Shown piece after piece: positions 16,353 through 16,944 of a stretch of 64,000 nt of DNA. A model generated the notes under the pieces. The model made no database searches. It had not been told where the DNA came from and saw nothing but the letters and a program-made list of their open reading frames with translations. Location of the stretch: assembly GCF_003334315.1 (NCBI RefSeq), contig NZ_QOWR01000013.1; one strand, written 5' to 3'. This DNA is from Escherichia coli. GTDB taxonomy: Bacteria > Pseudomonadota > Gammaproteobacteria > Enterobacterales > Enterobacteriaceae. The position numbers were made by a program, and so were the translations under genes. Numbering within the stretch: the stretch's first letter is position 1; each line of letters starts with the position of its first letter.

Positions 16353-16490
16353 TGGTTATCCCCGCTGACGCGGGGAACATAAGTTCGACAACTTAAAAAA
16401 TGATAACAAGTCCGGTTTATCCCCGCTGATGCAGGGAACATAATAAAAACTTTAACTAGTTCGGTTTATCCCTGTTTTTACAAGGAATAT
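16353..16490 (-). CRISPR. degenerate CRISPR mini-array remnant (3 decayed I-E-type repeats)
   Basis: Repeat-like units at about 16353-16380, 16413-16441 and 16462-16490 (for example CGGTTTATCCCCGCTGATGCAGGGAACAT) separated by 32 and 20 nt; each carries several mismatches to the main-array repeat. Confidence 0.6.
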
Positions 16491-16944
16491 TAACTACACT
16501 CGATGTCTTTAGAATAAAAGACAATACGAATCGCACTTTATCAATTTTCACTTAAAGTATGAACTGGATATCTTTATTCATAAGAACTATTCATCAACAG
16601 CGTATAGAGGCGGTTATGTAAAACCACTCATTAGCCTCAAAACAAAGACAAACTTCCAGATTTATTACTTAACCAATGAATAACAAGCTTAAAAAATATA
16701 CTGTTATTCTAAAGAAAAAATTAACAGGCATTAATTCAATATTAAAAAAATAATAGATTAAAATTTCTTAACGATTTAAGAATCATACAAATAACACTTT
16801 GATTAAATTTAATTTTTTGTATCGATAATTGTGAACCTCTCTGGCATGGAGAACTATTTTGAACATGAGGTGTTACGTGGATATGTTGCTTATTACAAGT
16901 ACTGCTAATATAAAAACTTGAGAAAGAGATAACGGGTTATATGG

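Follow-up and report, generated by a model that had tools for sequence, protein, structure and literature searches.

The region described here is the ygcE end of the type I-E CRISPR-II locus of E. coli, contained in a 64-kb stretch of DNA that was analyzed as a whole (hereafter, the window). The left boundary of the locus is ygcE (14828–16306, plus strand), assigned to the FGGY family of sugar kinases from the open reading frame list and the RefSeq annotation of identical DNA; the right boundary is queE, also called ygcF (17862–18533, minus strand). Downstream of the ygcE stop codon lies a G+C-rich inverted repeat (16314–16339) that resembles a terminator without a T-run. It is polymorphic, with variable sites at 16316, 16329 and 16338, and falls outside the conserved block discussed below. 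It is followed by a mini-array composed of the terminal repeat a (16353–16380; 28 nt), spacer S1 (16381–16412; 32 nt), repeat b (16413–16441), spacer S2 (16442–16461; 20 nt) and the leader-side repeat c (16462–16490). The main array, CRISPR2.3 (16945–17522), comprises ten repeats and nine spacers with a 61-nt period. Its leader, leader2.3 (17523–17861, minus strand), adjoins queE; it is supported by leader alignment, a leader profile and a boxA search, and contains the conserved CTAA junction, the CAATCTACCAAC motif (17567–17579) and a boxA (17611–17622). Repeat orientation is the same throughout the mini-array and the main array, and the crRNA sense is the minus strand.

The two arrays are separated by an AT-rich stretch (16491–16944) of 454 nt, with a G+C content of 28% compared with 51% for the whole window. 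In E. coli its proximal part (16491–16612) is present in a single copy and hardly varies; its distal part (16613–16944) is non-coding and evolves neutrally. The first-pass annotation had described a second mini-array with degenerate repeats, in tandem with the main array and set apart from it by about 450 bp of AT-rich sequence, and this description is accurate.

A description of CRISPR2.2 and the CRISPR-II locus was reportedly given by Diez-Villasenor et al. in 2010. In the literature on the locus (Touchon & Rocha 2010; Almendros et al. 2014; Garcia-Gutierrez et al. 2015), CRISPR2.2 is an array of three repeats and two invariable spacers at the ygcE-ygcF/queE locus, 0.5 kb from CRISPR2.3. A conserved AT-rich non-coding sequence of 0.5 kb splits CRISPR2, no leader is assigned to CRISPR2.2, and fused “CRISPR2.2-3” variants occur in some strains. 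The mini-array analyzed here has the same flanking genes, type-2 repeats, two invariable spacers and the 0.5-kb gap, which measures 454 bp. Based on its position between ygcE and queE and its match to the published description, the three-repeat, two-spacer mini-array is CRISPR2.2, a fixed element on the side of the type I-E CRISPR-II locus of E. coli that borders ygcE. The mini-array, the 0.5-kb AT-rich sequence and CRISPR2.3 have thus already been published, and structurally there is nothing new in the feature itself.

Repeats, spacers and recombination variants of the mini-array

Each repeat was scored by its matches to the 29-nt type I-E (type-2) consensus CGGTTTATCCCCGCTGGCGCGGGGAACAC. Repeat a matched at 24/29 positions without gaps, or at 25 when a 1-nt deletion was allowed, repeat b at 25/29 and repeat c at 19/29. 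Shuffled versions of the 64-kb window contained 7–21 matches of at least 17/29, and the best match in the real window outside the CRISPR locus was 19/29. Given these shuffles and the non-CRISPR maximum, repeats a and b are far beyond chance, and the earlier statement that the units match the repeat at more than 20 of 29 positions holds for both of them, but fails for repeat c. Taken alone, the score of repeat c is borderline. Three observations back its identity: its first 11 nt (CGGTTTATCCC) are exact, it sits in register, and its sequence is identical in a divergent Escherichia lineage, E69. All ten changes in repeat c are from G/C to A/T. Read in the crRNA sense, repeat a has a degenerate 3′ end and an intact stem. 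Terminal repeats in general show the same 3′-end degeneracy and, like repeat a, close the locus; here, however, the end of the locus is a three-repeat unit, cut off by 454 bp and evolving far more slowly than neutral sequence.

The repeat spacing of roughly 60 bp reported previously applies to the first unit (60/61 nt) but not to the second (49 nt), since the two spacers are 32 and 20 nt long. The S1 unit is close to a regular 61-nt unit with spacers of 32–33 nt, and the S2 unit is shorter. S2 looks like a copy, since diverged, of the final 17 nt of S1, matching it at 12 of 17 positions, a value never reached by AT-rich 17-mers of the region. This resemblance indicates a 49-nt tandem duplication inside the mini-array. 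It is the only duplication found: no spacer is common to the mini-array and the main array, which speaks against the suggestion that the mini-array records a past array duplication.

The spacer content of the mini-array is fixed. S1 is exact in 4049 of 4063 genomes and has no second site on E. coli chromosomes or plasmids. Across approximately 4,100 genomes a single spacer content was found, with no acquisition or turnover of spacers between strains; the sole variants are repeat-to-repeat deletions. CRISPR2.2 has no leader of the known family, neither gains nor loses spacers by acquisition, and changes only by recombination between its repeats.

The deletion variants found in nature are the fused CRISPR2.2-3 arrays and the shortened forms a-S1-c and a-S2-c. 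They confirm that the repeats recombine, and so bear out the proposal that the mini-array could serve as a substrate for recombination. The repeat a of fused arrays is a hybrid, in which the 5′ part of repeat a is joined to the 2.3-type 3′ end AACTC. The diagnostic TGGTTATCC start of repeat a marks the terminal repeat of the fused arrays found in strain SF-166, E. albertii and E. whittamii. A fused layout is also present in Escherichia sp. MOD1-EC7003, and the fused array of SF-166, with two repeats, matches that reported for the B2 strain LF82. According to the literature, B2 strains, all of which are without cas-E genes, have the fused CRISPR2.2-3 array and are missing the block. CRISPR2.2 is also reported in BL21 derivatives, which have no cas genes. 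The block is absent from B2 strains, E. albertii and E. whittamii without obvious cost. The mini-array is the old, leader-distal end of the locus, its repeat a being the degenerate terminal repeat of the single fused array in other Escherichia lineages.

The AT-rich stretch and the origin of the split

If the AT-rich stretch were a degenerated copy of a leader, as the first-pass annotation had proposed, it would be expected to retain traces of the leader family. Enterobacterial I-E leaders and the stretch are similar in base composition (27–30% and 28% G+C, respectively), and the stretch adjoins repeat c on the transcription-upstream side, as leader2.3 does its own array. The array beside the stretch, in contrast, shows no acquisition. 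The leaders used for comparison included leader2.1 of types A and T, leader2.3 and a Klebsiella leader, and a profile was built from six enterobacterial I-E leaders. This profile recovered leader2.3 with E=2e-28 and found nothing in 16462–16944, where the best hit had E=1.5 and lay on the wrong strand. Local alignment of 16491–16944 with leader2.3 and with K-12 leader2.1 gave scores at chance level; the control alignment between leader2.3 and leader2.1 was also weak, and the power of this comparison is accordingly low. The leader family is marked by the CTAA junction, the CAATCTACCAAC motif and a conserved architecture of about 100 nt; the junction and this motif are absent from the stretch, as is the CTACCAAC motif.

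The search for boxA gave a similar result. In boxA-containing leaders (Stringer et al. 2020), the element is expected in the crRNA sense approximately 77–100 nt from the first repeat. The minus strand of 16491–16612 contains no match with three or fewer mismatches, while the best boxA in the window, with one mismatch, is that of leader2.3. The IHF consensus WATCAANNNNTTR has no match with one or no mismatch in 16491–16612, but the same consensus also misses the repeat-proximal site of the true leader. The alignments, the profile, the missing boxA and the missing leader motif give no support to the AT-rich stretch as a degenerated leader copy.

An insertion could also have produced the present layout. 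Under this explanation, which corresponds to the view of Touchon and Rocha of one CRISPR2 that holds a 0.5-kb sequence, an ancestral single array was split by foreign, AT-rich, non-coding DNA that had never been a leader, and a-S1-b-S2-c is the cut-off end of CRISPR2.3. In agreement with such an origin, E. albertii, E. whittamii, MOD1-EC7003 and SF-166 have a fused array closed by this terminal repeat a, and the lack of leader homology in the stretch, its low G+C content and the neutral evolution of its distal part fit it as well. However, searches of phages, plasmids and the rest of E. coli turned up no donor: nothing homologous to the stretch was detected in phages or in true plasmids, three apparent plasmid matches being mislabelled chromosomes, and the conserved 122 nt (16491–16612) have no paralogue in E. 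coli. Neither terminal inverted repeats nor a target duplication is visible at the ends of the stretch. Recombination of repeat a with one of the CRISPR2.3 repeats accounts equally well for the fused form, as it would leave the hybrid repeat with its AACTC end, and comparable repeat-to-repeat deletions were seen directly. In addition, the split form is carried by a lineage that diverges by about 8% in ygcE. We consider an insertion a plausible origin, although we lean against it.

In some strains, the distal part of the stretch (16613–16944) contains IS1 insertions or deletion endpoints. This part of about 330 bp is neutral filler; its rate of evolution is given below.

Conservation of the mini-array and its proximal flank

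The mini-array and the adjoining ~120 bp are the least variable part of the locus. The block 16345–16612 is about 99–100% identical in 96% of the 4,164 E. coli genomes that carry it; in K-12, where coordinates are those of the window plus 2,887,068, it corresponds to 2,903,413–2,903,680. Among seven diverse genomes, no segregating sites were found in 16369–16612, compared with 50 sites in the 332 nt of the distal stretch; in ygcE, 7.1% of all sites and 25% of 4-fold sites segregated in the same genomes. Nucleotide diversity was 0.0018 in the block, 0.0615 in the distal stretch, 0.0593 in leader2.3 and 0.031 in ygcE. When segments of 244 nt were compared, the proportion of genomes at least 99% identical to the window was 96% for the block, 61% for the distal stretch, 56% for leader2.3 and 27% for the 3′ end of ygcE. 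The proximal 122 nt on their own reached an identity of 99% or more in 4068 of 4151 genomes. Metagenome contigs, an independent sample, displayed the same dip in diversity. Of the segregating sites in the block, 28/38 were singletons, compared with 28/64 in ygcE. A minor, E69-like haplotype with about 4% differences occurs at a frequency of 1–4%. The dip has sharp edges on both sides in several unrelated lineages, with common polymorphisms at 16368 and 16613.

Divergence from lineage E69 was evaluated against a neutral baseline of 29%, the divergence at 4-fold sites of ygcE. The mini-array differed from E69 at 3.4% of positions (3/89; P=5e-10) and repeat c at none (0/29). The proximal 122 nt differed at 14.8% (P=2e-4), while the distal stretch, at 27.8%, was neutral. 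The ratio of polymorphism to divergence was 0 to 20 in the proximal 122 nt, 50 to 89 in the distal stretch and 48 to 21 in leader2.3. No further E69-like genomes were found among RefSeq E. coli, where the best match had 81% identity. Low polymorphism combined with appreciable divergence from E69 in the proximal 122 nt would also fit a species-wide sweep in place of long-term constraint.

The mini-array does not evolve at the neutral rate expected of a decaying relic: its divergence is 3.4% against a baseline of 29%, and the diversity of the block 0.0018 against 0.03–0.06 in the flanks. Comparison with other E. coli genomes shows that the unit is not decaying at present. Being the least variable part of the locus, the block is probably still functional. 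The measurements made here show that the constraint is limited to the mini-array and ~120 bp, that the distal 330 bp are neutral, and that the block is less variable than both ygcE and the functional leader. The published accounts consulted noted the invariable spacers and a “highly conserved” non-coding sequence, and did not quantify these three measures.

The low diversity could have arisen without present function, if CRISPR2.2 and the AT-rich stretch were dead remnants of an old array end and the block owed its uniformity to a recent gene-specific sweep or to the recombinational spread of one haplotype. Spacers do not turn over, a leader of the known family is missing, B2 strains, E. albertii and E. 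whittamii do without the element, the 0-to-20 ratio of the proximal flank beside those of the distal stretch and leader2.3 is a classical signature of a sweep, and a second, E69-like haplotype has lasted at 1–4%. On the other hand, sharp edges of the dip in unrelated lineages require that recombination has long uncoupled the block from its flanks, and in that time a neutral block would have gained variants. The near absence of differences from E69 in repeat c and in the mini-array, compared with 29% at neutral sites, is not explained by a sweep within E. coli, and the excess of singletons relative to ygcE also stands against a neutral relic. Moreover, a sweep would itself imply selection on something within the block. 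We consider a neutral relic unlikely. CRISPR2.2 is most likely a frozen array end that acquires no spacers and that selection continues to maintain.

Candidate RNA products, targets and function

In the crRNA sense, 7-bp hairpins are predicted for repeats a, b and c, with energies of −15.1, −12.1 and −7.9 kcal/mol, respectively, on the minus strand, compared with −14.2, −8.7 and −4.4 kcal/mol on the plus strand. The stem of repeat b in the crRNA sense is held by a U.G wobble, and the plus-strand versions of b and c carry C.A mismatches. When decay was simulated as ten G/C-to-A/T hits, only 1.3% of the simulations retained a hairpin with the stability seen in repeat c. The 8-nt 5′-handle ATAAACCG is exact in repeats b and c. 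As judged from these predictions, the hairpins and the 8-nt 5′-handles are preserved specifically in minus-strand (crRNA-sense) RNA. Rare variants disrupt the stem of repeat a or b in the crRNA sense. Retention of the hairpins need not reflect selection on RNA and could stem from template-switch correction of a quasi-palindrome at the DNA level. When the block was folded as RNA, z-scores were about −4.3 on both strands; because the repeats are palindromic, this measure does not tell the strands apart.

A weak candidate sigma-70 promoter was read from the sequence on the minus strand, composed of TTCATA (16563–16558), a 17-nt spacer and TG-n-TAAAGT (16540–16535). It matches the consensus at 8/12 positions, falls below the threshold of the promoter scan, and is conserved in E69. 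The scan showed no enrichment of promoter-like sites in the region, and a terminator scan found no intrinsic terminator in the conserved block. An Rfam scan of 15500–18500 returned only two matches, both at chance level. Coding potential is restricted to tiny open reading frames. One of these, a 31-aa frame on the minus strand, is still present in E69, and was rejected as a gene: in E69 its 10 nucleotide differences produce 7 amino acid changes, and it has no Shine-Dalgarno sequence.

The constraint could instead reflect a Cas-independent element acting in cis for the neighboring genes or the chromosome, for example a small RNA from the plus strand or the 3′-UTR of ygcE in which the repeat hairpins are put to new use, a region bound by protein, or a barrier that keeps antisense read-through from CRISPR2.3 out of ygcE. 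Such an element would account for the conservation of 122 nt of non-repeat sequence, also in strains without cas genes, and the block contains a boxA-like 12-mer on the plus strand (16533–16544, two mismatches) and, in its most conserved core, the palindrome ACTTTA-N12-TAAAGT. The boxA-like match, however, is at chance frequency. The hairpins are more stable in minus-strand RNA, and it is the plus-strand forms of b and c that have the mismatches. Any 3′-UTR product would include the terminator-like hairpin of ygcE, yet this hairpin is polymorphic. The block has no Rfam match and no intrinsic terminator, and its sole open reading frame is the rejected one of 31 aa. A cis-acting role unrelated to Cas is improbable on this evidence.

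Neither S1 nor S2 has a credible protospacer in phages, plasmids, IMG/VR or E. coli genomes. IMG/VR contains two exact matches to the 20-mer of S2, but their PAMs are non-canonical and the surrounding DNA is AT-rich, and both were judged to be due to chance. Matches combining a PAM with a seed did not exceed chance in the adjacent 1.6 kb, the 64-kb window, or the CRISPR-I and cas loci of K-12 and O157; the best non-self PAM-proximal runs were 7–8 nt, compared with a shuffle mean of 7.1–7.2. The cas operon lies outside the window, at about 24 kb from the element in K-12.

These searches bear on a comparison with regulatory mini-CRISPRs of the CreA/CreR type, in which degenerate repeats and fixed pseudo-spacers guide Cascade, through partial complementarity, to repress a nearby toxin gene or the cas promoter. 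CRISPR2.2 resembles CreA/CreR and the CRISPR4 anti-cas arrays in having degenerate, hairpin-forming repeats, fixed spacers, and conservation without turnover. The flank is conserved as well, the 20 nt of S2 equal 32 minus two 6-nt steps, and the anti-cas spacers of CRISPR4 provide an E. coli precedent for functional orphan arrays. In contrast to CreA/CreR, neither the vicinity of the element nor the cas loci yielded a PAM-bearing partial target, and there is no evident toxin partner. The element is neither inside nor beside the cas operon, and it is kept in strains without Cascade. We regard a CreA/CreR-type role as very unlikely.

Under our preferred explanation, the frozen array end CRISPR2.2 would be maintained together with its flank (16345–16612), transcribed, and processed by Cas6e to serve a function. 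Transcription of the minus strand would start from the weak promoter, approximately 40–75 nt from repeat c, or would arrive by read-through from CRISPR2.3. Cleavage by Cas6e at the retained hairpins would then release two fixed crRNA-like RNAs, with guides of 32 nt and 20 nt. Selection would maintain the function of these RNAs or of the element as a whole. We judge the chances of this explanation as a whole to be evenly balanced. Standing against it are a candidate promoter with only 8/12 consensus matches, the presence of the element in BL21 derivatives without cas genes, and its absence from B2 strains, E. albertii and E. whittamii. The lack of a target in the searches above, the sweep-like pattern of the proximal 122 nt, the rare stem-disrupting variants, the minor haplotype and the DNA-level route to hairpin retention also count against it. 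More doubtful is the narrower proposal that CRISPR2.2 and its 120-bp flank form a domesticated mini-CRISPR gene, a transcription unit kept by selection whose two Cas6e-processed crRNA-like RNAs have a host function in E. coli; the element would then not be merely a fossil of earlier immunity. This proposal is put forward tentatively. The function of such a gene may be Cascade-mediated regulation by partial complementarity, which is one possibility.

As a feature, catalogued since 2010, the mini-array is of little import. Any import may lie in the measurement, made in the CRISPR model organism studied best, namely that a degenerate, leaderless mini-array and a ~120-bp flank are less variable than both the neighboring gene and a functional leader. 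Many constructs that delete CRISPR-II or insert a reporter at ygcE-ygcF may keep or remove the element unnoticed. If the low variability reflects function, K-12 harbors a CRISPR-derived RNA gene that has gone unstudied.

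Layout and identity of the mini-array

The locus is bounded by two convergent genes, ygcE (14828-16306, plus strand) on the left and queE/ygcF (17862-18533, minus strand) on the right. A G+C-rich hairpin 3' of the ygcE stop codon (16314-16339) is followed by the mini-array CRISPR2.2, whose three degenerate repeats match the consensus at 24 of 29 positions (a, 16353-16380; 25 with a 1-nt deletion), 25 of 29 (b, 16413-16441) and 19 of 29 (c, 16462-16490). Beyond them lie an AT-rich stretch (16491-16944; 454 nt, 28% G+C), the main array CRISPR2.3 (16945-17522; ten 29-nt repeats with a period of 61 nt) and its AT-rich leader, leader2.3, which occupies the 339 nt between the main array and queE. 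The canonical E. coli I-E repeat appears in the window in reverse complement, so the crRNA sense is the minus strand. The main array has its leader to the right, and the AT-rich stretch is on the leader side of the mini-array. Matches of at least 17/29 to the repeat numbered about 16 in shuffled windows, and elsewhere in the real window none exceeded 19. Repeats a and b are secure, and c is secured by its context. The three repeat copies described by the first-pass annotation are therefore real, but c matches at only 19 of 29 positions, and the spacers, S1 of 32 nt and S2 of 20 nt, place the repeats 60/61 and 49 nt apart, so that the proposed spacing of roughly 60 bp applies to the first interval only.

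The region 16306-16945 is 100% identical to K-12 derivatives and was found in 4,124-4,543 of 5,426 complete E. coli genomes. Compared with MG1655, the only difference is three additional repeat-spacer units in the window's main array (nine spacers versus six; ygcE-queE intergenic length 1555 bp versus 1372 bp); hence the source strain is K-12-like at CRISPR2.2, yet is not MG1655. The terminal repeat of the main array ends in TC, and the remaining repeats end in AC. The CRISPR-II locus (ygcE-ygcF) has been described as a single array, CRISPR2.2-3, in some cases and as two, CRISPR2.2 and CRISPR2.3, lying 0.5 kb apart, in others, with leaders recognised solely beside CRISPR2.1 and CRISPR2.3 (PMC3903273, PMC3737337). 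The feature is thus real and already published; the object itself is not new.

The AT-rich stretch compared with known leaders

Local alignment of 16491-16944 with leader2.3 scored 29, a value reached by 13 of 300 shuffles (mean 23.3 ± 2.9), and the best alignment joined non-equivalent positions; alignment with the K-12 leader2.1 was null. Because the control comparison of leader2.3 with leader2.1 was itself weak, the pairwise test has low power, and six I-E leaders were therefore aligned: leader2.3 from the window, E. albertii and E69 (a divergent Escherichia lineage), leader2.1 of type A (O157) and type T (K-12), and one leader of Klebsiella spallanzanii. These aligned without gaps across their first 62 nt and had in common a CTAA junction, a CAA-CTACCAAC motif and a TTAAAGA-CA motif, the last being the boxA antitermination element described in Salmonella CRISPR leaders (PMC7665894). 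A profile built from the six recovered the true leader at E=2e-28 and found nothing in 16462-16944, where the best match, even when those 483 nt were searched alone, had E=1.5 and lay on the wrong strand. The best boxA of the window is in leader2.3 (17611-17622, minus strand, GCTCTTTAACAT, one mismatch, 89 nt from the first repeat), and this near-consensus element corresponds to the Nus-dependent antitermination elements demonstrated by experiment in Salmonella CRISPR leaders. No crRNA-sense boxA occurs in the 122 nt adjoining repeat c. Promoter-like sites were not enriched in the region, and a simple IHF consensus scan was uninformative. Judged from these comparisons, the AT-rich stretch is leader-like in position and composition only and is no recognisable duplicate of a known leader; the suggestion of a degenerated second leader fits those two properties and gains nothing from profile, alignment or boxA. 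As no main-array spacer resembles S1 or S2, array duplication has likewise left no sign.

Several side observations concern the leaders. The boxA motif also aligned in leader2.1 types A and T and in one Klebsiella leader. In leader2.3, a CAATCTACCAAC-TTTA motif is present twice, 110 nt apart (17567-17583 and 17677-17693, the second copy reading AAATCTACCAAACTTTA), which looks like an internal duplication of a conserved leader motif. The K. spallanzanii array (L033:10730-12290; 22 I-E repeats, with a leader of the same enterobacterial family) lies between a TPM-domain gene and eno, beyond queE and not beside ygcE.

Conservation of the mini-array and its flank

In a diverse set of seven RefSeq genomes (K-12-like, 042, O157:H7 and four others), no site segregated in 16369-16612, and 50 of the 332 sites did so in the distal part of the AT-rich stretch (16613-16944). 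The proportion of segregating sites was 7.1% in ygcE (25% at 4-fold sites) and 7.3% in queE, and every 243-nt window of ygcE held at least six such sites. Nucleotide diversity was 0.0018 in the block 16345-16612, 0.0615 in the distal part, 0.0593 in leader2.3, 0.046 around the ygcE hairpin and 0.031 in ygcE. At the population level, we counted the genomes that were at least 99% identical to the window over 244-nt segments: 4003 of 4164 (96%) for the block (16369-16612), 2352 of 3835 (61%) for the distal part (16657-16900, with 641 genomes below 95%), 2559 of 4565 (56%) for leader2.3 (17523-17766) and 1456 of 5372 (27%) for the 3' end of ygcE (16050-16293). S1 was exact in 4049 of 4063 genomes, and the proximal 122 nt of the AT-rich stretch (16491-16612), a single-copy sequence, were at least 99% identical in 98% of carriers. 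In 56 independent metagenome contigs diversity was 0.0085 in the block versus 0.034-0.042 in the flanks, although the centre of this dip is biased because the contigs were chosen by an exact repeat c. Unexpectedly, no part of the locus is more conserved than this supposedly decayed unit.

The ygcE-queE neighbourhood (14828-18533; equivalents L088-L093) is otherwise unusually diverse (about 3% in ygcE, about 6% in leader2.3 and the distal stretch), with ygcE reduced to a pseudogene in some strains (SF-166, GF131). A common two-base variant in the metagenome contigs falls at the edge of the conserved block (16609-16610).

E69 represents a species of its own in GTDB, and its ygcE is 92% identical at the nucleotide level. 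Divergence from E69 was measured against the 4-fold sites of ygcE as a neutral yardstick (29.0%). The distal stretch diverged neutrally (27.8%, P=0.34). Divergence was below neutral in the proximal 122 nt (14.8%, P=1.7e-4), the mini-array a+S1+c (3.4%, P=4.7e-10), repeat c (0/29, P=4.8e-5) and the positive control, leader2.3 (6.2%, P=6.7e-26). Since divergence from E69 and diversity within E. coli are both low, the mini-array and about 120 bp beside it appear to be under selection, while the rest of the stretch drifts. The mini-array is accordingly not decaying now: its block has a diversity of 0.0018, and it differs from E69 by 3.4% against 29.0% at neutral sites. The ratio of polymorphism to divergence was 0 to 20 in the proximal part versus 50 to 89 in the distal part (Fisher P=5e-4) and 48 to 21 in leader2.3 (P=7e-9). 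Low polymorphism combined with appreciable divergence (0 to 20) is also what a gene-specific sweep would leave behind, and a neutral relic shaped by such a sweep is a rival explanation. Lasting constraint is favoured over a sweep, since the edges of the dip are sharp and shared and the mini-array is conserved in E69 as well.

Recombination, candidate RNAs and possible function

In relatives the layout varies. SF-166 has a fused array without the AT-rich stretch, composed of repeat a, one spacer, one repeat and leader2.3, a layout that matches the two-repeat CRISPR2.2-3 reported for the B2 strain LF82; its repeat a combines the diagnostic TGGTTATCC start and GAC loop with an end of the 2.3 type, AACTC. 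The E. albertii array is fused in the same way and has three repeats, whereas E. whittamii has repeat a and the leader alone, and Escherichia sp. MOD1-EC7003 has a truncated repeat a and an array. Lineage L034 has no CRISPR between ygcE and queE, and the array is absent from that site in Citrobacter and other genera with ygcE. E69 has the split layout; its mini-array consists of a-S1-c only, its AT-rich stretch is diverged and its CRISPR2.3 has three repeats. Among metagenome contigs with repeat c (L100-L179), three have a-S2-c and two a-S1-c, one of the latter with E. coli-type flanks; one contig carries five changes in S1. The fused and deletion variants imply that repeats a, b and c recombine with one another, as does a with CRISPR2.3 repeats, and the proposed role as a recombination substrate is borne out by the natural a-S1-c and a-S2-c variants and the hybrid a/2.3 repeat. 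That hybrid is compatible with both possible histories: the fused layout could be ancestral, with the AT-rich stretch inserted later, or could equally be derived through repeat-to-repeat deletion. S2 agrees with the final 17 nt of S1 at 12 of 17 positions, a likeness never attained against AT-rich 17-mers of the region, and repeat b has derived bases in common with both a and c; an ancient 49-nt tandem duplication is thereby indicated, and not two separate acquisition events.

In several strains the AT-rich stretch contains IS1 insertions, or endpoints of IS1-bounded deletions that have removed ygcE and upstream genes (near 16571 and 16883; L004:1748-2501, L096:749-1501, match H1); it thus seems to serve as a target for IS1.

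Repeat c has ten changes, every one of them from G/C to A/T. Its crRNA-sense RNA is nevertheless predicted to form a 7-bp hairpin (CCUUGU/ACAGGG), in which two pairs are doubly compensated and one is a U.G wobble, and only 1.3% of simulated ten-hit decays folded as well; the stem of b is preserved via one U.G wobble. Hairpin energies for a, b and c were -15.1, -12.1 and -7.9 kcal/mol on the minus strand and -14.2, -8.7 and -4.4 kcal/mol on the plus strand. Repeats b and c both carry an exact 8-nt 5'-handle sequence (ATAAACCG), and the length of S2 equals 32 nt minus two 6-nt steps. If the unit is transcribed, Cas6e and Cascade could make two crRNA-like RNAs from it. A weak candidate promoter (TTCATA, 17-nt spacer, TG-n-TAAAGT; minus strand, 16563-16535; 8 of 12 consensus positions) lies within the core best conserved with E69 and would initiate about 37 nt ahead of repeat c. 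Alternatively, transcripts could read through from CRISPR2.3, there being no intrinsic terminator between it and the mini-array.

Against a Cas-linked function, CRISPR2.2 is reported in BL21 derivatives, which lack cas genes, the block is absent from B2 strains, E. albertii and E. whittamii, rare variants disrupt a stem, and there is a minor haplotype with differences at about 4% of positions. A Cas-independent cis element is a rival explanation. Another is a CreA-like regulator, for which no PAM-plus-seed sites above shuffle expectation occurred in the adjacent sequence, the 64-kb window or the K-12 and O157 cas loci. Published Cascade ChIP-seq assigned chromosomal binding to CRISPR-I spacers and one CRISPR-II spacer; that paper mentions "at least 19 crRNAs" without discussing CRISPR2.2 (PMC5904413).

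No credible protospacer of S1 or S2 turned up in phages, plasmids, IMG/VR or any E. coli replicon. The S2 20-mer is exact in two unrelated IMG/VR contigs (L098:3968-3987, L099:4204-4223), which share 24 nt; with GAA and CAG at the PAM positions, not canonical I-E PAMs, these matches probably reflect chance in AT-rich phage DNA. The PLSDB "plasmids" H31-H33 (4.8-4.9 Mb) are E. coli chromosomes, and the IMG/VR "viral" contig L097 is a piece of one; all four carry this locus, and such mislabelled records could mislead searches for a mobile-element origin.

The first-pass reading of a decayed second leader-array unit thus holds for a second, degenerate and recombining mini-array, but its neighbour is no recognisable leader, and the mini-array neither duplicates the main unit nor is currently decaying. 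With about even confidence, we regard CRISPR2.2 as a frozen old end of the I-E array system that is maintained by selection together with a 120-bp flank, most plausibly as an expressed RNA unit that Cas6e could process.
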